A stretch of 64,000 nt of DNA from Chiloscyllium plagiosum (taxonomy: Eukaryota), in the NCBI RefSeq assembly GCF_004010195.1, contig NC_057749.1, forward strand, positions 17,131,750 to 17,195,749, read 5' to 3'. The notes beneath the pieces were generated by a model. That model worked only from the letters and a program-made list of their open reading frames with translations. It had not been told where the DNA came from and did not search any database. Positions within the stretch are counted from its first letter, which is position 1. Each line of letters starts with the position of its first letter. The position numbers were made by a program, and so were the translations under genes. Positions 4,471 through 59,330 of the stretch are shown here, piece after piece.

Positions 4471-4605
4471 TGTTATCACATATCTTTTAATTCCCCTTGA
4501 CAGTTACAGCTTCAATCACCACCAAGTCTGTTGGTGCATTCTGAGCCTCTGAACCTTCTGTGTAAGGAGCTTTATTCATGTTTCTCAGCCAGGTCATAAA
4601 TATAG

Positions 4606-6521
4606 CTGAAAATGTGTTGCTGGAAAAGCGCAGCAGGTCAGGCAGCATCCAGGGAACAGGATAATCGACGTTTCAGGCATAAGCCCTTCTTCAGGAATGA
4701 GGAAAGTTTGTCCAGCAGGCTAAGATAAAAGATAGGGAGGAGGGACTTGGGGGAGGGGCCTCGGAAATGCGATTGGTGGAAAGAGGTCAAGGTGAGGGTG
4801 ATAGGTCAGACNNNNNNNNNNNNNNNNNNNNNNNNNNNNNNNNNNNNNNNNNNNNNNNNNNNNNNNNNNNNNNNNNNNNNNNNNNNNNNNNNNNNNNNNN
4901 NNNNNNNNNNNNNNNNNNNNNNNNNNNNNNNNNNNNNNNNNNNNNNNNNNNNNNNNNNNNNNNNNNNNNNNNNNNNNNNNNNNNNNNNNNNNNNNNNNNN
5001 NNNNNNNNNNNNNNNNNNNNNNNNNNNNNNNNNNNNNNNNNNNNNNNNNNNNNNNNNNNNNNNNNNNNNNNNNNNNNNNNNNNNNNNNNNNNNNNNNNNN
5101 NNNNNNNNNNNNNNNNNNNNNNNNNNNNNNNNNNNNNNNNNNNNNNNNNNNNNNNNNNNNCGCCAGTCAAGCTGAAGACTCTGGATCCAATCCATACTGT
5201 ACCAATCCACACTGTACCACACTGTACCTTCAGCTTCAATGCCAACTGTTCCAAAGACAAAGGCCAATGATCCACACCCAAGTTGCTCCATCTCAAACAC
5301 CTACCGCCCAACAAATATTCTGTTCCTTTACCAAGATGCTTTGTCCTCTATCGTCTCAAGGAATATCATGTGGGCTCCACGCCAACTGTTTGCTAAACAA
5401 AGGGAGCTGAGATCGGAACCGACGAAGAGAGTATTGGAAGGTGTGAGAGGTGCATACAGATTGCAAGAGGTAGGAGGAGCGAGGAAAAACAGGGTGATAG
5501 AGAGGGGGCAGTGAAAAAAAGACTAAAAACTGAAGGAGGCCAGACAGTGAGAGAGGTTCAGTGTGACCATGGGAGGACGATACGGAGGGGAGAAAAGAAG
5601 GGAGAGTTATGAATTCTGCCGAGGCCCAGTCGGAGTGGGTGACCAAGAGGTGAAAGCAAGGACAATGTTCCTTAAACATAACTCCTGAACTCGGAACTCC
5701 TGTGCGCTTCCAACACCATTCTCTGACAATTTGGACGTCGTGAACAGTCTATTTCTCCACTCTCAACTTCTTCATATTGTTAATTCTGCTGCTTATCATG
5801 TCTTAATGAGCATTTTAATCCTTTGCAAATTAAAGTTGTTGATATCTCCCTTGTCTGCTGGTTTGATAGTGAGGTTGGGGTTGGAACGGAGGGAGTGGAG
5901 GGCTGCACGTTCCGATGTCTGCTGGTTTGATAATGAGTTGGGGTTGCAACGGAGGGAGTGGAGGACTGCGCGTTCAGAGGGTGAGAGGTTGGAGTGGGTG
6001 AGAGGGGTGGGGGAGTTCAGGTGGCGGTTAATATCGCGGCGGCAGTTGGCTATGAAGAGTTCGAGGGCAGGTAGGAGGCCAGCACGGGGTGTCCAGGTGG
6101 ATGGGGTGTGTGGCGTGGGGGCGTGGTGATGGCGATCGGCGAAGGGGCGGGGTTAGACTTGGTGACGGATATCATGGCGTGACATCGAACAATTCTTCCG
6201 CCGCCTTCGCCTCCGCCTACTTGCGGAGTGTTTCAGAGAACACCTCTGGGACACCCGGACCAACCAACCCAACCACCCTGTGGCTCAACACTTCAACTTC
6301 CCCTCTTCCACCTATCACATTTCCGACGCCCCTCCCCCAAGTCCCTCCTCCCTACCTTTTATCTTAGCCTGCTGGACAAACTTTCCTCATTCCTGAAGAA
6401 GGGCTTATGCCCGAAATATCGATTCTCCTGTTCCCTGGATGCTGCCTGACCTGCTGCGCTTTTCCAGCAACACATTTACACCTCTGATCTCCAGCATCTG
6501 CAGACCTCACTTTCTCCTCAA
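4606..6521 (+). mobile_element. Composite non-autonomous PLE insertion with inverted ends (spans a gap)
   Basis: 15-bp TSD AGGTCATAAATATAG (4591-4605, 6522-6536). 4606-4770 is the reverse complement of about 6320-6477. Interior holds PLE peptides: IKPADKG (minus, ~5850), FFRRLRL and FREHLWDTRTNQPNHPVAQHFN (plus, 6190-6300). Confidence 0.8.
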
Positions 6522-6829
6522 AGGTCATAAATATAGTCTTTCTTTCTCGTTCTAGAACTCTGTGACTGGTGACAGTCTGTTGATAACTCCTTTTCAGCAG
6601 TTCATAATTTTTAAAAAATGCTTCTGTCAACCATTCTAACAAACAGTTACAACTTTTTCAGTCTTCCTTTGTGTTTATACTTCTTTATACTGGCCATCCT
6701 TTGAGTGAATCAATGTTGTATCATCTATATTGCTTTAGATTTTCTTTGTGTTGTGAAGCCTGGAAGTGTAATCTGGATGCTTAACTGTAATTGGCTTTAT
6801 ATGGATTTAAAAAAACTTACACTTTCAGG

Positions 6830-17911: not shown

Positions 17912-18085
17912 ACAAATTAATGCAGATGTTGGAATCTGTATTGAAAACAGTAAATGCTGGAGATCACAGTGGGTCAGTCAGCATCCAGTGAGAGAGAGCT
18001 CTGATGAAGTGTCATTTAGACTCGAAACATTAGCTTGCTCTCTCTCCAAGGCTGCTATCTGACCCACTGTGATCTCCAGTATTTA
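17912..18085. mobile_element. PLE-derived hairpin element (family 3)
   Basis: Arms taaatgctggagatcacagtgggtcag / ctgacccactgtgatctccagtattta enclose a hammerhead motif. Confidence 0.75.
17997..18035 (+). ncRNA. Minimal hammerhead ribozyme motif, slightly decayed
   Basis: AGCU-CUGAUGA-A-GUGUC(AUUUA)GACUC-GAAA-CAUU-AGCU: core, stem II and a 4-bp stem I. Confidence 0.65.
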
Positions 18086-19049: not shown

Positions 19050-19938
19050 TTGTGTGACACTGTGCCTTTGAGAAGTGTTCTATGCTGTTTTTATTGCAGA
19101 GGGGTGTTGTCATAGTGGTACAAAAATGTCTCCTTCAGATAGGCAATTAGTACACAGCTTTTAGGTTCTTGAGACAAAAGCATCATGAGTGGGCAGGCTC
19201 AGGGCTCACACAAACCCAGCAACACAAGTCACTGACCAAGTCAGGATGGTGAGTTTTTGTTGTGAGAAGGTGTCTGCTGGTTGTTGGAGCTAAAAGCTTG
19301 AGTTCTCTGCTGCTTGGGTGAAGTCTTAAGACAAAGTGAGGACTGCAGATGCTGGAGATCAGAGCTGAAAATGTGTTGCTGGAAAAGCGCAGCAGGTCAG
19401 GCAGCATCCAAGGAGCAGGAGAATCGATGTTTCGGGCATGAGCCCTTCTTCCAGGAAGAAGGGCTCACGCCCGAAACGTCGATTCTCCTGCTCCTTGGAT
19501 GCTGCCTGACCTGCTGCGCTTTTCCAGCAACACATTTTCAGCGCTGAAGTCTTAAGACAACAAGGCTTCCTCTTAAAAATCAAAAGGGGCAGATTGTTTC
19601 TTTTTGGAGTTTCTCTCTTCTGGGTTGAAGAGCAATAGCATGTGAAAATCATAACTGTGTTGCTGAATTTGCCTTTACCAAGGGTGTGTTTATGGAATGC
19701 TGCCCATATTAGAATGATTGAGGTTAGTGGTTCATAATACATTATTTTGATAAGTATTCCAGTAGTGTAAAGTTGTGCTAATTCTTTTTTTAACTGTGTT
19801 GTAAAAATAAAGTATGTTTTCATGAAAGCTTAGTGGTGGACCAATTGAATCAAATCTGGAATATAACACCTTAGACTTAAAAGTTAGGTTTACGCCATCT
19901 CCATAATATACTTTAGGGGACTGGCCTGGTCTATAACA
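19050..19938 (+). mobile_element. Solo-LTR-like repeat
   Basis: Ends CTATAACA; AATAAA near 19806. Start matches 34541 onward; end matches the inverted copy beginning at 46806. Confidence 0.6.
19335..19544. mobile_element. PLE-derived hairpin element (family 1)
   Basis: ~85-bp near-perfect inverted arms (19364-19450 / 19454-19542); 16-bp TSD TGAAGTCTTAAGACAA (19319-19334, 19545-19560). Confidence 0.88.
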
Positions 19939-20462: not shown

Positions 20463-22237
20463 ATTCCAGGATGATTTACTAACTGGTAATCGGGAGTAAG
20501 ATCATTGATTTTCTTTTCACATCATTCCTCGACCAAGAGCACTTGGTTAACCTTTGTATTCTCATCACTGCTTGGATTAGTCTCCACCTCCTGCTGCTGC
20601 CTGGTTTGCTGTGTTCTCCCAGCCTCCTGCTTGTCTACTTTGGATTGGATCTATTAACTGAACTAACTTCTGATTTGCAAAATTCAGTGCTTCACTGGGT
20701 AATGCCATGGTGAGCCACTAAATCCTGAGTTTTGTAAGTTAAAATCGTAATAATCATCACTGTAGCTTCTACTGTATGTCACGACTGGAGAAATGTGTTT
20801 ATGTTAATGTTGATATTTAGGATTCTGAACATAGCATGTTTCAGAGAACTGGCGCTATAATGTTTTACCTCTTGCTGACCAAGGCTCTTCAACATTGGAT
20901 CTGTTGTGTTGGGAAAATAGCCCTATAATACTGTCTGAAGGGAGAAGGCTGCGCATTGCAATAGATTGCAATATTTGTCTACTTTTGGCTTGTTTAAACT
21001 TTGAGATTGTTTAAACTTCTATAATTGGGACAAAAATCTCTTGTTTATTTAGGTTTGACCCAGTCTGCAATGAACTTGACTACATGACAGCTAACGTTCA
21101 AAGTTAGTGTTCGACTGTGCTGGCTTTTCAGAATGATTTAGTTCACTGAGGTAAAGGTTTTGTAATGACTCTGAGTGAGTTTCTGTCTGGACTTGCTGCT
21201 TGGTCTGTGTTGGGAGTGGAGTTTCTGTATGATGTCATTCTCCTGTGCAGATGTTGACACTTGCCTGTGTTTTGTGTGCTCTCTCCAGTAATAATATCTG
21301 GGCGGGTTTCTACAGTTTTTTAAAAAAAATCTGGTTACAGGATATCGTTGAATCCTTGATGAAGGTTGCTAATGTAGTTAAAGCATTGAATGAGACCTGG
21401 TGCAGCAGAGAGAATTAAATCTGATGTACTGTTTTGCTCGTTGTATGTGAGATCTATTTTCATAGTAATTAAATAACATGACCCTAACTGAAATGTGCAT
21501 GCTGATGTTCACCTGTGAATAAGAGATTTGGTTTTCTGTAGGTAAATTGTGGTTTTCTTGAGCTACTGTTTCAGGAATAAAAGGTGTTTAGAGAGAAGAA
21601 TTGGATGATTGTGTAGAACACTTTCATTTTGATGTGGAATTGTTGATAGTTGATATATTTCTTGGTCTTTACAGAAGATTGGAATGCTGTGGGAAAGTTG
21701 ATTTAAATTTTGTTTCTGCTAGTTATTGGTTATAACATATTTTAAACAGGCTTCAGCCAAAGTGAAGTTGAATATTTGAAATTATGATGGAGTCAAAATA
21801 TGATGTTGAGGTGCCAGTGTTAGACTGGGATGGACAATGTTAAAAATCTCTCAACACCAGGTTATAGTTCAACAGGTTTATTTGGAAGTACAAGCTTTCA
21901 GAGCACTGCTGCTTCGTCAAGTAGCTAGTGGGGCAGGATCACAGGACATAGAATTTATAGTAAAAGCTCAAAGTGTCATACAATTGATGCGATGTATTGA
22001 ACAAACCTAGATTGCTGATAAGTCTTTAATCGTTTTGAATGGGTTTCAGTTTTCAATGAATTAATTTGTACATCCCAAAGCTGCTTCCCCATTGCATTCA
22101 TGAGATAACTTAAGGTTTTATAAAAAAAGTGACACCTCAGCTGAGACAATGCATTAAAGGTGTGAGGTTAGAGCCAGTCTGTGTACCAATCTTGAGTCAG
22201 ACCGGTTCTGTTTCCAAAGTAGGAATTTATAAAATTC

Positions 22238-23543
22238 AAAGTTTGTGAGAAGATTTGTAGCTCGGGTGCTCGTTGTTGTGGTTCTGTTCACTGAGCTGGG
22301 AATTTGTGTTGCAGACATTTCGTCCCCTGTCTAGGTGACATCCTCAGTGCTTCGGAGCCTCCAGTGAAGCGCTTCTGTGATCTTTCCTCTGGCATTTGTA
22401 GTGGTTTGAATCTGCTGCTTCTGGTTGTCAGTTCCAGCTGTCCGTTGCAGTGGTCGGTATATTGGGTCCAGGTCGATGTGCTTATTGATTGAATCTGTGG
22501 ATGAGTGCCATGCCTCTAGGAATTCACTGACTGTTCTCTGTTTGGCTTGTCCTATAATAGTAATGTTGTCCCAGTNNNNNNNNNNNNNNNNNNNNNNNNN
22601 NNNNNNNNNNNNNNNNNNNNNNNNNNNNNNNNNNNNNNNNNNNNNNNNNNNNNNNNNNNNNNNNNNNNNNNNNNNNNNNNNNNNNNNNNNNNNNNNNNNN
22701 NNNNNNNNNNNNNNNNNNNNNNNNNNNNNNNNNNNNNNNNNNNNNNNNNNNNNNNNNNNNNNNNNNNNNNNNNNNNNNNNNNNNNNNNNNNNNNNNNNNN
22801 NNNNNNNNNNNNNNNNNNNNNNNNNNNNNNNNNNNNNNNNNNNNNNNNNNNNNNNNNNNNNNNNNNNNNNNNNNNNNNNNNNNNNNNNNNNNNNNNNNNN
22901 NNNNNNNNNNNNNNNNNNNNNNNNNNNNNNNNNNNNNNNNNNNNNNNNNNNNNNNNNNNNNNNNNNNNNNNNNNNNNNNNNNNNNNNNNNNTGATCCGGT
23001 GTGTGTTCTCTATTTCTGTGTTTTAAATGATTACAAAGGTGTCATCCACATATCTGATCCAGAGTTTGGGTTGAATTTGCGGTAGGACTGTTTGTTCTAA
23101 TCTTTGCATTACCGTTTCTGCTATGAGTCCAGAGATGGGTGTGCCCATGGGTGTGCCGTTGATTTGTTCATATATTTGTTTGTTGAATGTGAAGTGTGTT
23201 GTGAGGCACAGGTCCAGTATTTTGAGTATGCCGTCTTTGTTGATAGGTTCAGCGTCCTGTTAGGACATCCCACTCAGACCCATAGTATCACTACCAGGGA
23301 CACCATCACACAAACTGGCTAAAGAACTACAGCAGAAACTGAAACACCTGATCAGCGGATCCAGACACTCTATACAATCAACACAGGAATTCTTGGACAT
23401 CATCAGAAATATACACATCGACAAGGAAGAAACCATGGCCTCATTCGATGTAACGGCACCGTTCACCTCTATCGACAAAACCCTAGCCAGAGAAACAATA
23501 GCCAACCTGCTGGACATACAGAACAGACAACAGGACGTTGAAC
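22238..23543 (-). mobile_element. Nested PLE (family 4) with a 5' inversion (spans a gap)
   Basis: 22270-22575 is the reverse complement of about 59030-59330. Minus-strand RT motifs GTPMG and RYVDDTFVI (22992-23260); plus-strand RPIVSLPGTP...ASFDVTAPFTSI (23262-23543). Confidence 0.88.
22311..22350 (-). ncRNA. Minimal hammerhead ribozyme motif
   Basis: GCA-CUGAGGA-U-GUCACCU(AGAC)AGGGGAC-GAAA-UGUC-UGC. Confidence 0.72.
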
Positions 23544-25226
23544 TTGTGAGAGAGAGCTTGTATTTGAGAGAGGATCTGTGTGAGTGTGATCTTGTGTAGG
23601 TGTGTGTGTATAGTGTAGTGGAGTCACCTGTAGTTTGTCAGGAACCCAAAATCCCAGTTGAGGCTATGCTCGTGGATAATGAACCTGGTTATCAGCATCT
23701 GCTAGGCGATTCTGCATTGTTGTGTATCCTGAAGTTCGCCTTAGAGGACAGTCACCTGAAGATCCGAGGCCGAGGCATACCATGGTAGTTACACAGTGAT
23801 ATTAACAAGTTCCATCCCACAATCAGACTTACCTTGGGCTACTCTTCAGAATCAGTCTCGTTCTTGGACATGCATCTCCGTCAAAGACTGGAACCTCAGT
23901 ACCTCACTCTCTACCGCAAGCCCACTGATAAGCTCCTGATGCTGCACTTCTCGAGCTTCCACCCTAAACATATCAAAACAGCTATCCCCTACAAACAAGC
24001 CCTATGCACACACAGGAAATATTCAGATGAGGAGGAACGCAACGAACATCTCAAGGATGCTCTTATAAGAACAGAATACAATGCCCAACTCATTGATCGC
24101 CAGTTCCAGTGTGCCACAACGAGAAACTATAATGACCTCCTCAGGAGACAGACATGGGATATGAACGATAGGGTATCCTTCGTTGTCCAGTACTGCCCAG
24201 GAATGGAGAAAATACACCATGTTCTTAACAGCCTGCAACACATTATCGATGAGGATGAGCACCTCACCAAGACCTTCCCAATGCCTCCACATCTCGCCTT
24301 GAAACAGCTGCCAAACCTTAAACAGACCATTGTTCACAGCAAACTGCACAGCCTTCAGGACAACATCGACCACAATATCATACGATTCTGACATGTCAGA
24401 GTGTCAACATGGATACTACCATTCTACTTGGGGACACCACACACCATGTGCACGGCAGGTACTGATGTGACTCAGCCATCATTGTCTATCTTGTCTACTG
24501 CAGGCAAGGATGCCCAGAGGCATGGTACATTGGCGAGACCAAGTAGATGGTATGACAACAGATGAATGGACACTGCACAACAATTGTCAAACAGGGATGT
24601 TCACTCCCAGTTGGGAACACTTCAGCGGTCAAGGACATTTGGCCTCAGATCTTCGGGTGACCGTCGTCCAAAACGGACTTCAGGATACCCAACAGCACAC
24701 AGTCACCGAGCAGAGGCTAATAGCCAATTCCGTACCCATGCGGATGGTCTCAACTGGGATCTTGGGTTCATGTCACACTATAAGTGACCCCACTACATAA
24801 TGCACTCCTGCGCACTCTCACTCTCGCGCACTCTCACTCTTGCACATTCTCTCTCCTACATGCACTTTCTTGCACACAGGCACATACTCCGTCATGCACA
24901 CCCATAAGTCTATGGGGTGAATTTGCATTTGCAGATTTGTATTTGCTTTTACAATCTATTTTTGTTCAAAAAGCGCACAATCTGTAGGCAGTCAGTCCAT
25001 GTGACATTTTGGAATACAGACAGACTAACCTCTCACCTTTTATCCCAGGAATGTGACTTGAAAGAAGTTCTGGGATTTACATATTAATGACTCGAAATTT
25101 GCAACCCATTCAAAGTGATTAAAGACTTAGCAGCAATCTAGGTCCATTCAATACATCACATCAATTGTATGACACGTTTTGATCTTTTACTATAAATTCT
25201 GTGTCCTATGATCCTGCCACACTAGC

Positions 25227-25261
25227 TACCTGACGAAAGAGCAGTGCTCCGAAAGCTTGTA
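25227..25261 (+). ncRNA. Minimal hammerhead ribozyme motif
   Basis: UAC-CUGACGA-A-AGAGC(AGU)GCUCC-GAAA-GCUU-GUA, with palindromic AAGCUU; a decayed antisense copy lies near 21888-21925. Confidence 0.68.
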
Positions 25262-25439
25262 CTTCCAAATAAACATGTTGAGCTATAACCTGGTGATTTT
25301 TAACTTTGAGAACTTAATAGTTTAATTTATCTACTGCATGCTTGTATCAATTTTATTTGCTTGTTTCAGCCTCTGTTAGGATACTATTGCTTGGCTTTCC
25401 GTAATTTATTTTGTAGATGTTTAGTTTGTGGTTGCATGT

Positions 25440-25990
25440 CAGGGTTATTACAAGTTTTAGTGCCAGGTCATTCAGGAGAGATGTTAGAAACCACTTCTAC
25501 CCGCAAAGAGTCGTGAAGCTGTGGAACTCTTTCACAAATGGCAATCAATGCTAATTCAATTGTTAAATTTAAATCTGAGACAAATTTTTATTAAGCAAGT
25601 ATGTCAAGGGATGTGGCCCCAAGGCAGGCATATGGAGTTAGACTGAAAACAAAAAGAAAATTCCTGGAAATCATCGTGGGTCAGGCAGCATCCATGGAGA
25701 GAGAGAGAGCATGCTAATATTTTGAGTCTAGATGACTCTTCATCAGAGTTATCTAGACCTGAAAACATTAGCGTGCTCTCTCTCCTGGGCCGAAGGGCCT
25801 GTTTCCACACTGTTGAGAATCTAATCTAATCTAACTGCTACCTGACCTGCTGAGATCTCCAGCATTTTCTGTTTTCAGTGCAAATTGCAGCATCTGCAGT
25901 AATTTGCTCCTATATGGAGTTAGACCACAGGTTAGCCATTAACATTTTGATTGGTGGAGCAGGCTTAAGGACCTGGCAAGGCCATTGTTA
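25440..25990 (+). mobile_element. Old CR1 3' end with a nested family-3 hairpin element (~25645-25912), itself carrying an HE1 tail (25786-25834)
   Basis: CR1-like flanks; hairpin arms similar to 17912-18085; insert TGGGCCGAAGGGCCTGTTTCCACACTG...(TCTAA)3. Confidence 0.7.
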
Positions 25991-32700: not shown

Positions 32701-32717
32701 ATCATATATTAGATATA

Positions 32718-32901
32718 ATGTGGATGTGCCAGTGTGGACAAAGTTAAAAATCTCAGAACACCAGGTTATAGCCCAACAGGTTTATTTGGAAGTACAAGCT
32801 TTCGGAGTGCTGCTCCTTCTGAAAAGTTTGTACTTCCAAATAAACTTGTTCGACTATAACCTGGTATTGTGTGATTTTTAACTTTGTCCACACCGGCACT
32901 T
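32718..32901. mobile_element. PLE-derived hairpin element (family 2)
   Basis: Inverted arms match the ends of the 21803-25308 PLE; 13-bp TSD TATATTAGATATA (32705-32717, 32902-32914). Confidence 0.85.
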
Positions 32902-34112
32902 TATATTAGATATAGACAACTGGATTCAAATGAATCTCTTATCTGCGTAAAGAGTGTATGAGGGAGATCAGCAAGGTAAAGAGAGGATATGAGATAACCT
33001 TGGCAAACCAGGTTAAGGTTAATCCGAAAGGTATTCTACAAGTTTATTAAGAGCCAGAGAGCAACTAGAGAAAGAGTAGGGTGTCTTAAAGATCAGAGGT
33101 TATCTTTTTGTTGAACCTCAGGAGATGGGAGGGATATTAAATTAATATTTTGCATCAATTTGTACTGTGGAGAAAGAAATGGAGGCTAGAGAACTCTGGG
33201 AAAGAAATATTGACGTTTTGAAAAGCGTTCACATTACAGAAGAGGAAGTGCTGATGGTCTTAGAAAATGTAAAGGTGGATAAATCTCTGGGACTTTATCT
33301 AGTGTATCCCAGGATGTTGTGAGAAGTTAAGGACAAAATTGTGGGGTTCCTTGCAGAAATATTTATATCAACTATAAATACGGGGAGGTGCTGAATAACT
33401 GGAGTGTAGCTAATGCACCTTTGTTTCAGAAGGGATGTAATGAAAAGCCTGGGACCTATTGACCTCAGAGTTTATCTTCAGCGGTGGGTATGTTGTTGGA
33501 AGTGTTTATGAAAGGTAGAATTTATATGCATTTTAAGAGTCAAGGAGTGATTAGGGATAGTCAGCATGGTTTTGTGGGAGGAAGATCACGTCTCGCAGAC
33601 TTGCTTGAGTTTTTTGTGTGGAATTAAATAAAATGATGGCAAGGTGGTAGACGTTGTTTACTTGGACTTTAGTAAAGCCTTTGATAAAGTTCTGCCTGGT
33701 AGACTTATTAGTAAAGTTAGATTACACGGGATTCTGAGTAAGCTTGCCAATTGGATACAAAATTGACTTAATGGCTGGAGACAGAATAATGGTGGAGGGT
33801 AGTTTTTTTGGACTGGAAGTCTGTTACCAGCTGTGTTCCACAGGGATTTGTGCTGGGTCCATGTTTGTTTGTCATTTATACAAATGATTTGGATGAGAAC
33901 ATAGAAAGCATGGTTAGTAAGTTTGCGGATACACCAAGATTGGTGATTTAGTGGCGAAGATGGTTATTTAAGATTGCAAAGAGATCTTGATCAATTGGAT
34001 CAGTGGGCTGAGGAGTGACAGTTTAATTTGGATAAATGCATATTGCATTTTGGCGATAAAAAAACAAATGCAAGACTTATAACAAAAGAAATAGGGCCTT
34101 AGATAATGTTGT

Positions 34113-34331
34113 AAAAACAATGACTGCAGATGCTGGAAACCAGATTCTGGATCAGTGGTGCTGGAAGAGCACAGCAATTCAGGCAGCATCCGACGAGCAG
34201 CAAAATCAACGTTTCGGGCAAAAGCCCTTCATCAGGATTCCTGATGAAGGGCTTTTGCCCGAAATGTCGATTTTGCTGCTCGTCGGATGTTGCCTGAATT
34301 GCTGTGCTCTTCCAGCACCACTGATCCAGAA
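34113..34331. mobile_element. PLE-derived hairpin element (family 1 variant) with a hammerhead motif on each strand
   Basis: ~90-bp inverted arms; 16-bp TSD CCTTAGATAATGTTGT (34097-34112, 34332-34347); the arm matches the PLE tail at 43880-43975. Confidence 0.88.
34203..34240 (-). ncRNA. Minimal hammerhead ribozyme motif, intact
   Basis: GAAUC-CUGAUGA-A-GGGC(UUUU)GCCC-GAAA-CGUU-GAUUU; mirror copy on the plus strand at 34239-34271. Confidence 0.72.
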
Positions 34332-34532
34332 CCTTAGATAATGTTGTCGAACAGAAGGGCCTCGGGGTTCATGTACATAATTCTTTGAAGTTTGCATCAC
34401 ATATATATCAAGTGGTTAAGAAGGGTTTTAGCATGATTACCTTCATTGCTGAAATCTTTGGGACTTTATGTTGAAATTATGCAGGGCATTGGTGAAGCCT
34501 CTGCTGGAGTCCTGTGTCGGATTCTGATCTCT

Positions 34533-34837: not shown

Positions 34838-35393
34838 CAGTGGCCGAGTGTTAGTATTGCTGGACTGTTAATCCAGAGACCCAGCTAATATTCTGGGGAC
34901 CTAGGTTCAAATCATGCCATGGCAGACTGGAATTTTGAATTCAACAAAAATCTGGAATTAAAAATCTATAATGATGACCATGAATCCATTGCTGACTATT
35001 GGAAAAACCCGTCTGGCTCTCAAATGTCCTTCAGGGAGAGAAACTGCCATTCCTACCTGGTCTGGCCTACATGTGACTCCAGTCAAGATTACAGTGGTGC
35101 TGAAAAAGCACAGCAGGTCAGGCAGCATCCAAGGAGCAGGAAAATCGACCTTCATGGGGCTTCTGTCCAAAACGTTGATTTTCCTGCTGCTCGGATGCTG
35201 CCTGACCTGTGCTTTTCCAGCACCACTGTAATCTTGACTCTAATCTCCAGCATCTGCAGTACCCACGTTTGCCTACATGTGACTCCTGGCCCAAAGCAAT
35301 GTGGTTGACCCTTAACTGTCCTCTGGGCAATAGCAACGGACAATAAATTCTGGCCTAGCTAGTGACTCCCTCATTCCGTGAATGAATTAAAAA
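34838..35393 (+). mobile_element. tRNA-derived SINE (non-HE1 family)
   Basis: A-box-like start, B box GGTTCAAATC, LINE-like tail ending gaatgaattaaaaa; other copies at 14875 and 42250/44600. Confidence 0.75.
35081..35270. mobile_element. PLE-derived hairpin element (family 1 variant)
   Basis: Inverted arms; 16-bp TSD GCCTACATGTGACTCC (35065-35080, 35271-35286). Confidence 0.85.
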
Positions 35394-39895: not shown

Positions 39896-41734
39896 CCCCA
39901 TCTCCTTCATGATTGTAATTTTACTAAACTCTTCTTTCCCTTCCACCACCTGATTTATGACTATTACTGGAAAGTGTTTTATAATCTCTTCAGTGAAGAT
40001 AGGAGCAAAATGTTTTTGTTCACTTAATCCACCACTTCCCTTATCATCTATTAACTGCCTACTCCCAGGATCTCTTAGACGATCAGTACTATGTTTACTG
40101 ACTGCTCATTTAAATTCCTGCTATTTAAAAATTTTTGCTATCTGTGTTTGCATTTCTCTTTGCCTTCCCCTCATACTCTAATCTATTCCGACTGATTCTA
40201 GAACTGCAGAAAATGTCTAAAATTTTATTCTGACCTGTCACTTGCCTGTGGACATTTATATGCGTTTGCCTTAAGTTCCCTGCTTTCCTTACTTTCCTTA
40301 TCTAACCGTGGGTGGTAGGTCCTCCCTTAAGAATTCTCCTTAATGGTAGGAATATGCTTATTCTGAATATACTGAAATTTTCAGTTAAATGTCCATATTT
40401 CTAATGATCTATCCCTTAGCCAGCCTGCCATCTTATTTCTGAACACTTGTCCTTATTTAGTTTTAGAATGCTAGTCTCAAACACAATTTTCTCCCTTTCA
40501 AACTTCATGTAAAATTCAACCATATTGTGATCACTACTATCTCGGGCTGTCCTTTGTTTGAGGTCATTAACTAATCTTGTCACATTACACAATGCCAAGT
40601 CTCATATAACCTGCTCTTTATTTGGTTACAGAACATAATGATCTAAGAAACTATCTTGAAAGCATTCCATGAACTCCTTGTCCAGTTTACTACTGTAAAT
40701 CTGAATTTTAAAGTTTCCATCCAGATTAAAATCACACAAGATTATTGCTGTCCCTTTATCACAAGCTTCCAGTATTTCTTCTTGTATACTTTGTCCCATA
40801 TTGTCGTTAGTTAGGGGTCTGTAAACAACTCCCACGAGTGACTTCTTTACTCCACTGTTCCCCATCTCTACCCAAACCAGGTTTACATCTTGACCTCCTG
40901 AGCCAATGTCATCTCTTATTGTTGCTCAAATGCCATCCATTATTAACTGCACTGATCTTCTACTTTTACCTCACCTTTTCTTCCTGAATGACATATGCTC
41001 TTCAATAATGAGCGAATCCTTGTCATTCTGCTGTCACTTCTCAGAAATGGCTAAATTAAAGAAAGAATGTTGGAGATCTGAAACAAATCAGAACTTGTTG
41101 ATGAAACTCAGCAGGACTGGCAGCATCTGTGGGACAAAGCAGAGTTAATATTTTGAGTCTGGTGATCCTGAGTCACAGATGCTGACAGACCTATTGAGTT
41201 TTGCCAGGAAATTGTTTTGTCTCTAAAATGGCTATTAAATTATGTTTATTTAATTCATTGTACGCTATCAATTTGTTGACTTTGTCATGAATGCTTTGCA
41301 CTTTCAGAAATAGAGCTTTTAGTTTTGTCATTTTTGTTATCTTTGTAACACCTGGTCTTGATTGGTGTATCCAATTTTTTTTTTCTGTCCCTTCCTGCCA
41401 TTTTCTGACCCATGTTCCCATTTTTCTCTTATTTCATCTCTACTTTTTGATATACCACATCTTCCCATGTGATAACTTGCCCCCAGTATTTAGTTTAAAA
41501 CCTTCTCTACTTTCCTGATTCTGCAGTTGACAAGACCACTGGCCCCAGCACAGTTGAGGTGTAGACCATCCCAACAGTGTAATGCCCATTTTCCCCAGTG
41601 TTGGTGCCAACACCAATCTTTGAGCCATGTAATAATCTGTAACCTATTTCAATTTTCATGTAGCTCAGCTAAAAATTCAGAGATTAAAACTTCTGAAGTT
41701 TCATTTTTAATTTCATGCTTAGCTTGATATACAT

Positions 41735-41935
41735 GCTGAAAATGTGTTGCTGGAAAAGCGCAGCAGGTCAAGCAGCATCCAAGGAGCAGGAAATCGACGT
41801 TTCGGGCATGAGCCCTTCTTCAGGCCCGAAAGGTCGATTCTCCTGCTCCTTGGATGCTGCCTGACCTGCTGCGCTTTTCCAGCAACACATTTTCAGCTCT
41901 GACCTCCAGCATCTGCAGTCCTCACTTTCCCCTCC
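41735..41935. mobile_element. PLE-derived hairpin element (family 1) with a hammerhead core on the minus strand (41791-41824)
   Basis: Direct repeat TAGCTTGATATACAT(GCTGA) at 41720 and 41936, with a third copy at 41955. Motif CUGAAGA-A-GGGC(UCAU)GCCC-GAAA-CGUC. Confidence 0.85.
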
Positions 41936-42249
41936 TAGCTTGATATACATGCTGAGCTTGATATACATGCTGTGCAGAATGTCTTTCCTGGTTTTGCCCA
42001 TTTTATTGTTACCTATGTGGACAATGACTGTTGGAGCCTCCTCTTTTCACTGCAAGTTCCTTTCCAGCCCCTGGCAGATGTTCTGAACCCTGACACCAGG
42101 CATGTCTGTCTGGATTCTTGCTCTTTGCTGCAGTGAACAGCATTGATCTCCCTCATTGTGCTATCCCTACTACTACTACTACTACTACTAGATTCCTTGT
42201 TGCTGTCAGAAATTTGAAGTAATTATTATTTTGCTTAATATGAGCATTT

Positions 42250-42473: not shown

Positions 42474-43975
42474 GAATATCCAATCCCTCTACACCTCCAT
42501 CCGCCATGACCAGGGCCTCCAAGCCCTCTGTTTCTTCCTCTCCCGACATCCCCAACAGTACCCTTCCACCGACACACTCATTCGTTTGGCCGAACTGGTC
42601 CTCACCTTTAACAATTTCTCCTTTGAATCCTCCCACTTCTTCCAGACCAAAGGGGTATGGGCCCCAGCTATGCCTGTCTCTTTGTTGGCTACGTAGAACA
42701 GTCGATCTTCTGTAATTATACTGGCACCACTCCCCACCTCTTCCTCCGCTACATTGATGACTGGATTGGCACCACCTCGTGCTCCCACAAGGAGGTTGAA
42801 CAATTCATCAACTTCACCAACACATTCCACCCTGACCTTAAATTTACCTGGACCATCTCTGACACCTCCCTCTCCTTCCTGGACACCTCCATCTCCATTG
42901 ATGACACCGATTTGACACCGACATCTTTTACACCCCCACCGACTCCCACAGCTACCTGGATTACACCTCTTCCCACCCCACCTCCTGCAAAAATGCTATC
43001 CTGTATTCCCAATTCCTCCGCCTCCGCCGTATCTGCTCCCAGGAGGACCAATTCCATCACAGAACACACCAGATGGCCTACTTCTTTAGAGACTGCAATT
43101 TCCCTTCCCACGTGGTTAAAGATGCCCTCCAACGCATCTCGTCCACATCCCGCATCTCTGACCTCACCCCTCCAACCGTAACAAGGACAGAACGCCCTGG
43201 TGCTCACCTTCCACCCTACCAACCTTCGCATAAACCGAATCATCCGCCAATATTTCCGCCACCTCCAAACAGACCCTACCACCAGGGATATATTTCCCTC
43301 CCCACCCCTTTCCGCCTTCCGCAAAGACCGTTCCCTCCGTGACTACCTGGTCAGGTCCACGCCCCCCCTATAACCCACCCTCCCATCCTGGCACATTCCC
43401 CTGATACCGCAGGAATTGCAAAACTTGCACCCACACCTCCTCCCTCACCTCTATCCAAGGCCCTAAAGGAGCCTTCCACATCCATCAAAGTTTTACCTGC
43501 ACATCCACTAATATCATTTATTGTATCTGTTGCTCCCGATGCGGTCTCCTCGACATTGGGGAGACTGGACGCCTCCTAACAGAGCGCTTTAGGGAACATC
43601 TCCGGGACACCCGCACCAATCAACTACACCGCCCCGTGGCCCAACATTTCAACTCCCCCTCCCACTCTTCCGAGGACATGTAGGTCCTGGGCCTCCTTCA
43701 CCACTGCTCCCTCACCACCAGACGCCTGGAGGAAGGACGTCTCATCTTCCGCCTTGGAGCACTTCAACCCCAGGCATCAATGTGAACTTCAACAGTTTAC
43801 TCATTTCCCCTCCCTCACCCCAGTTCCAAACTTCCAGCTCAGCCTCAGCACTGTCCCCATGACTTGTCCTACCTGGTATTCATGATGAAGGGCTTTTGCC
43901 TGAAATGTCGATTTTACTGCTCCTCTGATGCTGCCTGAACTGTTGTACGTTTCCAGCACCACTCTAATCTAGAAT
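42471..43975 (+). mobile_element. PLE (family 1), 5'-truncated: RT, GIY-YIG endonuclease and hammerhead-type tail
   Basis: MNIQSLYTSI, LAELVLTFNNFSF, MGPSYACLFVG, RYIDD, LSFLD; IIYCICCSRCGLLDIGETGRLLTERFREH...VAQHFN; tail atgatgaagggcttttgcctgaaatgtc. Confidence 0.92.
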
Positions 43976-45619: not shown

Positions 45620-45683
45620 GTGTGATGTCATGAATCCTACTGTATGGATGTGCTATCAGTGCTGATGGCACAGTTGATCCAAT
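45620..45683 (+). other. MYO9A: 5' UTR part of the MYO9A first coding exon, with splice acceptor
   Basis: Pyrimidine tract and acceptor ttgattttgtttcAG|G at 45619/45620, 64 nt upstream of the ATG; fits a non-coding exon 1 lying elsewhere. Confidence 0.8.
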
Positions 45684-46526
45684 ATGAATGTGCATGACAT
45701 TGGAGGAAGACGACGCTATGAAGACAATGAGTTTACATTACAAGTTTACCCAGGGAATATAGCAGAAGACACCATTTATTGCCCTGTTACTGCAAGGAAA
45801 AACACTAGTGCTGCAGAAGTTATAGAAACCCTTATTTATAAATTGCAGCTTGAAAAGACGAAATGCTACGTCCTGGCAGAAGTAAAAGAATTTGGTGGGG
45901 AGGAGTGGATACTCAATCCATCAGACTGTCCTGTGCAGCGCATGATGCTTTGGCCACGCAGTGCCCTAGAAAATCGATTCAGCAGCGAGGACTATCGCTT
46001 CTTACTTAGAGAAAAAAATCTTGATGGCTCAATTCATTATAATAATCTACAGTCATGGCTGAGAGTGACGGAGGAGCGAAGGAGGATGATGGAGCGGGGA
46101 TTTTTGCCCCAACCCCCGCAGAAGGATTATAATGATTTGTGCAATCTACCGGACTTGAATGAAAAAGCACTCCTGGACAACCTGCGCAACAGGTTTAAAC
46201 AAGAAAAAATCTACACGTATGTGGGAACGATTTTAATTGCCATAAACCCTTTCAAATTTCTTCCTATTTACAATCCCAAATATGTAAAAATGTATGATAA
46301 TCACCAACTGGGAAAGCTGGAGCCCCATATATATGCAGTTGCTGATGTGGCATATCATGCCATGCTGCAACGCAAAAAGAACCAATGTATAGTTATTTCA
46401 GGTGAAAGTGGTTCAGGGAAGACACAAAGTACAAATTTCCTGATCCATCATCTTACAGCTCTGAGCCAGAAGGGTTTTGCCAGTGGAGTGGAACAAATTA
46501 TTCTTGGAGCGGGTCCTGTACTGGAG
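45684..46526 (+). CDS. MYO9A: Unconventional myosin IXa, first coding exon (281 codons: Ras-association domain plus N-terminal part of the myosin motor domain)
   Basis: Intact [27 protein letters not shown]...[24 protein letters not shown]...[16 protein letters not shown]...[15 protein letters not shown]...[19 protein letters not shown]...GAGPVLE. Closely matches the vertebrate MYO9A N-terminus as I recall it (GGRRR.EDNE start and [23 protein letters not shown] favour 9A over 9B). Ends at a phase-0 donor GAG|GTAAGA (46526/46527). Confidence 0.96.
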
Positions 46527-46635
46527 GTAAGATGCTGCTATAGATATTTCTCTTTTTACAGAAGGAAGACTACAGATGTAGTCAAATGCTGTTTTTATTA
46601 TAATAAATCAGTGCTGTATAAAGAGCAAGTCTTGT

Positions 46636-46790
46636 GATATAAACCAAAATTGCTGGAAAAACATTTCTGAGGATTCCTTAGATCTAAAACATTAACTTTG
46701 CTTTCTCTCCACAGATCTAGCCAGATCTGTTGAGTTTATTCAACAATTTTTAATTTTTGTTTCTGATTTCCAGCATCTGCAGTTCTTCAG
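46636..46790. mobile_element. Decayed PLE-derived hairpin element
   Basis: Imperfect arms and a tctgatttccagcatctgcag tail; similar relics near 14440-14545, 27145-27285, 41055-41225 and 50545-50675. Confidence 0.55.
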
Positions 46791-58200: not shown

Positions 58201-58762
58201 GGTCACTGGAGGGTTTTCTATACTTAGGTATTTTTATCACCCCAGTATTTGGTCAGCTGTATAAAGCCAATTTTGTACACCTATTAGAGAAAATAAGGCA
58301 GGACCTTCAACACTGGGAAGATCTCCCAACATCTTGGTTAGGCAGAGTAGCTCTAGTTAAAATTAATATTCTGCCTGGTCTCCTATATCCTATAAGAATG
58401 CTCCCTCTGATGTTGCCGAGACTGGCGTTGCGTAAGCTATACGGCTGGCTTGGTTCCTTTATTTGGAATCATAGACGGCCTCTAATCAAATTTGAAAAGC
58501 TGCAGCTTCTAACAAGTACTGGATTTTCTAGACTTCAGGAAGTATCAGTTGAGCTCTTTATTATGCTATATAGCTGATTGGGTCTCTTGTGACCCTCAAT
58601 CAATTTGGCTAGACATTGAGACCTCCCAAGCAAAATGTCCCCTCATCAATCTTTTATTTTTAGATAAGATGAGAGCTATTGCAAAAACAATTAAAATTGC
58701 AAATACAATTAAAGCCTGGAGGATAATGTGGCAAGATGAGGGTAACCTACAAAAAACCTCTC

Positions 58763-59330
58763 GACTACTGCGACCCCTAGGACTCATAACGGCACACAAA
58801 CCAACAGCCACGCTCCGACAACAACTGACCAGAACGAAGGACCCGATACCCAACATGAGCAAGACGAATGTAGTGTACAAAATACCATGCAAGGACTGCA
58901 CTAAACACTATATAGGACAAACAGGAAGACAGCTAACAATCCGCATACATGAACATCAACTAGCCACGAAACGACACGACCAGCTATCCTTAGTAGCCAC
59001 ACATGCAGACAACAAGCAACATGAATTCGACTGGGACAACACTACTATCATAGGGCAAGCCAGACAGAGAACAGCCAGGGAATTCCTAGAGGCATGGCAT
59101 TCATCCACAAACTCCATCAACAAACACATCGACCTGGACCCAATATACCAACCACTACAGCGGACAGCTGAAACTGGCAACCGGAAGCGGCAGGGACAGA
59201 CCACTATAAACACCGGAGGAAACATCAAAGAAGCGCTTCGCAGGAGGCTCCCAAGCACTGATGATGTCGCCTAGCCAGGGGACGAAACGTTTGCAACAAA
59301 AACTTCCAGCTCGGCGAACAGAACTACAAC
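58763..59330 (+). mobile_element. PLE (family 4) 3' fragment with an open GIY-YIG domain, inserted in L1 ORF2
   Basis: VVYKIPCKDCTKHYIGQTGRQLTIRIHEH...REFLEAW; flanking direct repeat AACCTCTC (58755-58762, 59331-59338). Confidence 0.92.
59255..59294 (+). ncRNA. Minimal hammerhead ribozyme motif
   Basis: GCA-CUGAUGA-U-GUCGCCU(AGCC)AGGGGAC-GAAA-CGUU-UGC, with palindromic AACGUU. Confidence 0.75.

Follow-up and report, generated by a model that had tools for sequence, protein, structure and literature searches.

Palindromic insertions of about 200 bp in Chiloscyllium plagiosum read as the shortest products of ordinary PLE insertion

The short hairpins described here appear, on present evidence, to be the shortest products of ordinary insertion by Penelope-like elements (PLEs) and not a self-copying, self-mobilising family. 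They were studied in a 64-kb window of the Chiloscyllium plagiosum genome, by which we mean the whole stretch of DNA analysed, and were followed into the rest of the assembly. It is very likely that they were formed at insertion, either by two separately primed cDNAs or by one cDNA that folded back, and we lean towards the former: each hairpin would be a one-off PLE integration product in which two cDNAs were joined at their ends.

An inverted-repeat scan of the window recovered five palindromes of about 200 bases (Table 1), which are the five non-coding palindromes with long target duplications (TSDs) that the first-pass annotation had listed. The unpaired extension noticed earlier on a single arm is likewise seen in all five (24, 8, 29, 31 and 38 nt in hairpins 1 to 5, respectively), hairpin 2 with its 8 nt being atypical. 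In hairpin 5 an exact 20-bp repeat overlaps the element end by 5 bp, leaving a TSD of 15 bp, and within 41936-41972 the right TSD is followed by a second, partial self-copy that also takes in the opening bases of the element end. For comparison, among 2,000 random pairs of flanks with a similar geometry, 7 had 13 bp or more in common. When TSD lengths were tabulated for 30 close copies of hairpin 1, as had been proposed, all 30 were found to have TSDs, of variable length between 11 and 18 bp, and 22 fell within 14-16 bp. A sixth short palindrome belongs to a further end family, and no TSD was recovered in its flanks.

Table 1. Coordinates in the window of the hairpins, their arms and TSDs, and related insertions
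Feature	Coordinates	Strand	Remarks
Hairpin 1, left TSD	19319..19334	+	16 bp
Hairpin 1	19335..19544	.	apex ~19453; minus strand reads as tail-bearing PLE end (tail ~19335-19363), plus strand as tailless PLE end
Hairpin 1, right TSD	19545..19560	+	16 bp
Hairpin 1, arms	19359-19452/19454-19547		97% identity
Hairpin 2 (32718 copy)	32705..32914	.	TSD 13 bp: 32705-32717, 32902-32914
Hairpin 2, arms	32726-32802/32823-32899		90%
Hairpin 3 (34113 copy)	34097..34347	.	TSD 16 bp: 34097-34112, 34332-34347
Hairpin 3, arms	34142-34237/34239-34334		96%; tail at left
Hairpin 4 (35081 copy)	35065..35286	.	TSD 16 bp: 35065-35080, 35271-35286
Hairpin 4, arms	35081-35152/35171-35239		90-97%, in two pieces; tail at right
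Hairpin 5 (41735 copy)	41720..41950	.	TSD 15 bp: 41720-41734, 41936-41950
Hairpin 5, arms	41735-41791/41841-41897		98%
Sixth short palindrome (scan position 17951)	17920..18085	.	further end family; tail at left
Rearranged relative of the 17920 family	25640..25900	.	small palindromic centre 25701-25784
1.9-kb insertion with hairpin architecture	4591..6536	.	TSD 15 bp; assembly gap 4812-5160
Decayed PLE-like ORF pieces and end 25225-25308	23789..25308	+	end related to hairpin 2
Broken coding PLE	42480..43975	+	RT motif, Cys-rich linker, GIY-YIG-type motif; hammerhead-bearing end 43880-43975

The arms had been taken for the tails of PLEs present in the window, and BLAST bears this out: they match 43880-43975 at 79-87% and 25235-25308 at 81-85%. 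Hairpins 1, 3, 4 and 5 form one related group together with 43880-43975, while hairpin 2 is related to 25235-25308 and 21798-21915 and has no BLAST match to the other four; the five hairpins represent at least two unrelated end families. Judged by the match of their arms to the end of a broken RT/GIY-YIG ORF (42480-43975), the hairpins are insertions of endonuclease-bearing (EN+) PLEs. Translation of this ORF (42480-43800), in broken frames, shows the YIDD motif of an RT and a GIY-YIG-type motif, with a Pfam match to GIY-YIG that is weak and below the cut-off (E = 0.031). Its RT piece resembles clusters bearing RVT_1/HTH_animal (0.91-0.95 by features), which we treat as a lead, and its Cys-rich linker is, we assume, reminiscent of the Neptune clade. 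Three PLE ORF pieces gave no Pfam match at E 0.001, two of four pieces none at E 1, and the ORF pieces of 23789-25308 gave no Pfam match. In the subfamily of hairpin 1 itself, continuity of the end was traced into the 3' UTR, not into an ORF. The 3' part of the 42480-43975 PLE has 10,177 first-look candidates genome-wide. At 43875 this coding PLE lacks a 3' UTR stretch that is present in most of its relatives, and most of the 40 scored matches to a PLE query from this region end at query base 530-536. Another PLE family with a GIY-YIG-type motif is represented twice, at 58700-59330 (+) and 22200-22575 (-); this family has a hammerhead-like motif near 59260-59295, and its ends gave no hairpin in the window.

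Could the hairpins be MITEs mobilised by a DNA transposase? They are short and non-coding, with long inverted repeats and a high copy number, as MITEs would be. However, such an origin is contradicted by the variable TSDs, and it also has against it the asymmetric termini with a one-sided tail, the variable internal junction and the identity of the arms with PLE ends that are also found on coding PLE bodies. We consider it scarcely credible, and the earlier reading of the hairpins as PLE-derived and retrotransposed agrees with the long, variable TSDs.

According to a strict motif scan, together with the fold of stem II, a minimal type I hammerhead motif of the pLTR, a putative ribozyme, adjoins the apex. 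The first-pass annotation had placed the hammerhead region at the apex, and this holds as far as adjacency goes, but the apex is the 5' edge of the motif and not its cleavage site, and the same scan finds the minimal hammerhead intact on the two arms of the 34113 copy alone, with one intact arm at 41735. Both arms of hairpin 4 are cut within the hammerhead. In hairpin 5 the whole core lies on the tailless left arm, and the right arm, which bears the tail, begins 16 nt within this core. An Rfam scan of the window at the gathering score gave 0 matches, and folding of the hammerhead region gave no z-score beyond shuffles.

The abundance of the hairpins was estimated from 20 stretches, each 10 kb long and placed at round coordinates on five contigs (188 kb without N). 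These contained 10 short head-to-head PLE-end palindromes and one longer one, a density of about 1 per 19 kb, which in this small sample corresponds to the order of 10^5 across the 3.56-Gb assembly. A pattern search requiring stem II of a single subfamily on both arms, at most 30 nt apart, gave 1,758 hairpin loci for that subfamily (control 0). Among the first 50 of these in contig order, sorted by hand, we distinguished about 35 types of apex junction, with 27 singletons, 5-7 loci in the largest class and 2 of the hairpin-1 type; many of these junctions have added or locally copied bases. Shared apex junctions had been named beforehand as the mark of amplifying subfamilies. The junctions are mostly unique instead, and the claim of self-mobilising hairpin elements is not borne out, while the other reading offered at that time, truncation-inversion products of PLE integration, is backed by these data.

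A non-autonomous family, in which PLE proteins would re-insert complete transcripts of a hairpin master, is improbable in our opinion. It would fit the recurrence of some junctions, up to the largest class just given, and the at least 28 near-identical copies that carry the apex of the 19335 copy in either of two orientations and are young (97-99% identical). Moreover, non-autonomous PLE derivatives are described in the available text of two publications (MRC1, PMC8557442; retrozymes, bioRxiv 10.64898/2026.07.22.740005). However, the 30 look-alikes were chosen by similarity to the query, and the apex that seemed fixed among these best matches to hairpin 1 (two forms, mutual reverse complements, in 20 and 8 copies, plus 2 others) is seen in 2 of 50 in the unselected list; we rejected the fixed apex as an effect of ascertainment. 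The commonest junction is also present in a different subfamily (34113 in the window), indicating that it recurs by mechanism. The 30 close copies show 56 asymmetric and 5 symmetric differences, and the recurrent differences are confined to CpG sites or a few doubles; no shared non-CpG asymmetry that would mark a hairpin master was found among these young copies, a comparison of low power. Both arms of hairpin 2 have the same tail deletion of about 11 nt, and this marker has not spread, since it matches three places in the genome, two of which are its own arms. Hairpin arms also fail to cluster on a tree of 33 ends (95 columns; 11 hairpin, 14 body-attached and 8 solo ends, with too-short ends left out). 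This tree required 14 label changes against a shuffled mean of 15.6, a value as low being reached in 50 of 200 shuffles, and hairpin and body-attached arms required 9 changes against 9.5; the tree is weak, with 2 of its 29 branches well supported. A minority of hairpins may have been copied secondarily.

The point at which copies stop was followed in one subfamily with a pattern lengthened in the upstream direction from the hammerhead core (position 0), exact matches being counted at each step. Ends reaching positions 0, -3, -4, -5, -6 and -12 number 15,708, 12,253, 9,784, 6,827, 5,915 and 3,429, respectively, so that the loss in successive steps is about 8% per nt, 20%, 30%, 13% and about 9% per nt; point mutation and subfamily variation contribute to these figures, which count ends. 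By -12, 5' of the hammerhead core, 78% of the ends have left the template. The loss peaks directly past -4, an A, at 30%, compared with a substitution level of about 1% per site among the youngest copies. The sequence around this A resembles what we take to be the Initiator consensus, and the stop lies away from the hammerhead cleavage site, which by motif is about 28 nt downstream. Past -4 the non-templated base was C in 58, T in 30 and A in 12 of the first 100 of 2,957 rows, read by hand. The extra C is possibly a base copied from the cap, though the arm opposite is another potential source of C. No pile of RNA starts or ends was seen among 2,427 poly(A) single-cell reads of one run (X19). 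The stop at -4 probably reflects either the RNA 5' end or a structural stop.

The ends that pass this point link the hairpins to longer insertions. In the same subfamily, 3,429 ends run into PLE body sequence, and the head-to-head pairs among the first 100 matches listed cover spacings between 0 and about 3 kb. Hairpin-like ends are also seen on units of 357, 631 and 1,916 bp, whose TSDs measure 15, 10 and 15 bp, respectively; such longer insertions with TSDs are found at L032 and L050. In the window, the insertion at 4591-6536 has a tailless inverted end (4604-4696) and a tail-bearing end (6391-6519), both of which continue into upstream PLE sequence. Solo stubs with a TSD occur as well, tailed at L016, L022 and L040:7421, and tailless at L050:4012 (14-bp TSD). 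The variety of junctions, the body-attached ends and the units of 0.36, 0.63 and 1.9 kb together imply that the hairpins are minimal 'inverted pLTR + tail' insertions. Some insertions are more complex. Stretches within about 5160-6200 of the 4591-6536 insertion are not obviously of the PLE end family and are possibly captured or rearranged. In the 640-bp unit at L032:8970-9628, which has a 10-bp TSD, pieces of the PLE body have been linked in opposite orientations, which suggests several template jumps. At the 5' junction of the solo stub L050:4012-4101 the target site of this stub is briefly repeated in inverted orientation, and at L028:1494-1913 two adjacent hairpin insertions share target-derived sequence, as if they came from one event or one site had been hit twice.

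The ends of the arms fall at +88/89 or at +125-128 from the hammerhead core, giving either no tail or one of about 36 nt. We compared 17 head-to-head pairs that were not picked by their apex; they come from two related end families only and include four of the five window hairpins. Exactly one tail is present in 16 of the 17 (15 by script, L017 by eye), compared with a tail in 8 of 21 unpaired ends (the script scored 9, one of them a false positive). If the choice were independent, about half of the pairs would have one tail, and we estimate the chance of 16 in 17 at about 1 in 10,000. An old locus that departs from the one-tail rule, L031:1352-1688 (palindrome 1390-1644), is tailed on each arm, and its two sides share about 40 bp of flank past the tails. 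The shared flank at both sides of this locus, together with the assembly gaps within PLEs, would suit a post-insertion origin, in which a repair or replication slip made a second, inverted copy of a solo stub, or an assembly artefact. Against both of these stand the intact TSDs around the whole hairpin in all five window copies and 30 relatives, the independent substitutions by which the arms differ, and the presence of opposite-strand joints in independent reads; we regard either as very unlikely.

The arms also differ in their upstream reach. The tailless arm extends further in 9 of the 17 pairs, by up to 80-90 nt (L032, L050), and the tailed arm in 6, while 2 are not assignable; in the 9 pairs each arm holds sequence that is absent from the other. 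Since neither arm could have supplied all of its partner, two separately primed cDNAs are favoured over fold-back alone, in which one target-primed cDNA would stop near the 5' edge of the hammerhead and copy itself to near its start before the hairpin was resolved. Self-priming of this kind was proposed for PLE inverted junctions in the available text of PMC3846280. As the general source of the hairpins, fold-back appears to us rather unlikely, but it has real points in its favour: the deletion that hairpin 2 carries privately on each arm, two symmetric substitutions, likewise private, among the 30 copies, several junctions that read as a turn-round inside hammerhead stem II, and the arms of young copies, which are about 99% alike. 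Besides the upstream template missing from tailed arms, it has to face the tailless solo end with a TSD, the two apex orientations among young copies and the added bases at many junctions.

For dual priming speak the diversity of junctions with added bases, the peak in the loss of ends past -4, the graded head-to-head spacings with longer units of the same architecture, the single tail, the greater reach of either arm and the occurrence of both apex orientations in near-identical copies. Further support comes from PMC11167929, whose available text reports nicking and extension of two strands in vitro, a tail delimited by two internal RT start sites, and a predicted dimer. Several observations count against it. 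In hairpin 2 the shorter arm enters the tail and the deletion is on both arms, which fold-back or conversion between arms explains better; the two symmetric substitutions (L026, L028) are non-CpG; L031 is two-tailed; and a later deletion or flip of the palindrome centre could mimic the pattern of either arm being longer. The mixed make-up of the end counts, the lack of an RNA pile in the single run and the equal use of start sites between strands in vitro (PMC11167929, as available) also weigh on this side. When candidate partners were ranked for the arms, the own partner came first in 5 of 17, a ranking confounded by unequal arm lengths. Dual priming and fold-back may both operate.

In the dual-priming mechanism, a GIY-YIG endonuclease, assigned on the strength of PMC11167929, would cut both target strands about 14-16 bp apart, the spacing being that of the observed TSDs. 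The two target 3' ends would then prime RT on PLE RNA, one at a distal site (+125 to +128) and one at a proximal site (+88/89), and these positions, which would be RT start sites by comparison with the same study, would yield one arm with a tail of about 36 nt and one without. Both cDNAs would be joined head to head by microhomology or short added bases, and the variability of this joining would explain why junctions differ. Before joining, each would usually have stopped within a short distance upstream of the hammerhead core, a few bases at most, and most often at the Initiator-like A at -4. A cDNA that extended further or jumped would give inverted insertions of 0.4-3 kb, and a single primed end a solo stub, tailed or tailless. 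In a more specific and more tentative version, which falls somewhat short of an even chance in our judgement, one dimeric particle would prime both strands coordinately, one per RT start site, and both cDNAs would run to the capped RNA 5' end at -4, possibly with a cap-templated C, before being end-joined ('double strong-stop').

The architecture itself has been published. EN+ PLE insertions with an inverted pLTR, an optional tail, a TSD and a junction palindrome are described in the available text of PMC3846280, PMC8557442 and PMC2377424, and the hairpins resemble these inverted-pLTR PLEs in their head-to-head ends, the 30-40-nt tail at one end only and the TSD around the unit. They differ in being often reduced to the two ends alone, about 200 bp, in their copy number (order of 10^5) and in their TSDs, which are 13-16 bp in the window compared with 8-10 bp in the rotifer PLEs of these papers. 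For Poseidon PAc of Anolis, the available text of PMC11167929 reports that two internal RT start sites bound the tail in vitro, that both strands are cut and extended, and that the hammerhead lies upstream of the start sites and its cleavage is not needed; second-strand synthesis and the formation of inverted units were left unsettled there. The hairpin ends at +88/89 and +125-128 match those two start sites, and the 5' stop away from the cleavage site agrees with cleavage-independent insertion. However, start sites showed no strand bias in vitro, whereas the pairs examined here have one tail in 16 of 17.

The minimal hammerhead motif is that of PMC4209133, which notes dual minimal hammerheads on opposite strands at a distance of about 100-700 bp, as well as numerous single ones that come from truncated PLEs; the word 'shark' is absent from its main text, and its available text holds no TSD, tail or junction analysis. 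Non-LTR retrozymes, present in the single chondrichthyan sampled according to the available text of bioRxiv 10.64898/2026.07.22.740005, are likewise short, non-coding, PLE-derived and equipped with a type I hammerhead. They are, however, head-to-tail tandems with a hammerhead per unit, while the hairpins are head-to-head and often cut inside the hammerhead; both arms have a complete hammerhead in one of the five. In the literature searched (with Dfam, Repbase, supplements and subscription papers outside the search) we found no account of such short palindromes formed by PLE insertion for cartilaginous fish, and, with supplements and subscription papers again outside, no paper that links 'twin priming' with pLTRs. 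As far as the available text of the cited papers goes, the 5' stop pile-up and the rule of one tail with either arm longer go beyond them.

The hairpins amount to a natural archive of PLE integration on a very large scale, and testable constraints on the second-strand step come from the sharp 5' stop, from the rule of a single tail and from an apex asymmetry that goes both ways. If 'double strong-stop' were true, the roughly 10^5 copies would make the second half of PLE integration directly measurable. Repeat annotators could misname these hairpins as MITEs, and perhaps 10^5 near-perfect inverted repeats of about 90 bp have been added by them to the genome and its transcripts. Outside the PLE sequences, the window also contains an exon-like ORF at 45678-46637 with an RA domain (Pfam, 1.3e-20) and the start of a myosin motor (Myosin_head, 5.7e-46), an arrangement that we take to be that of class IX myosins.
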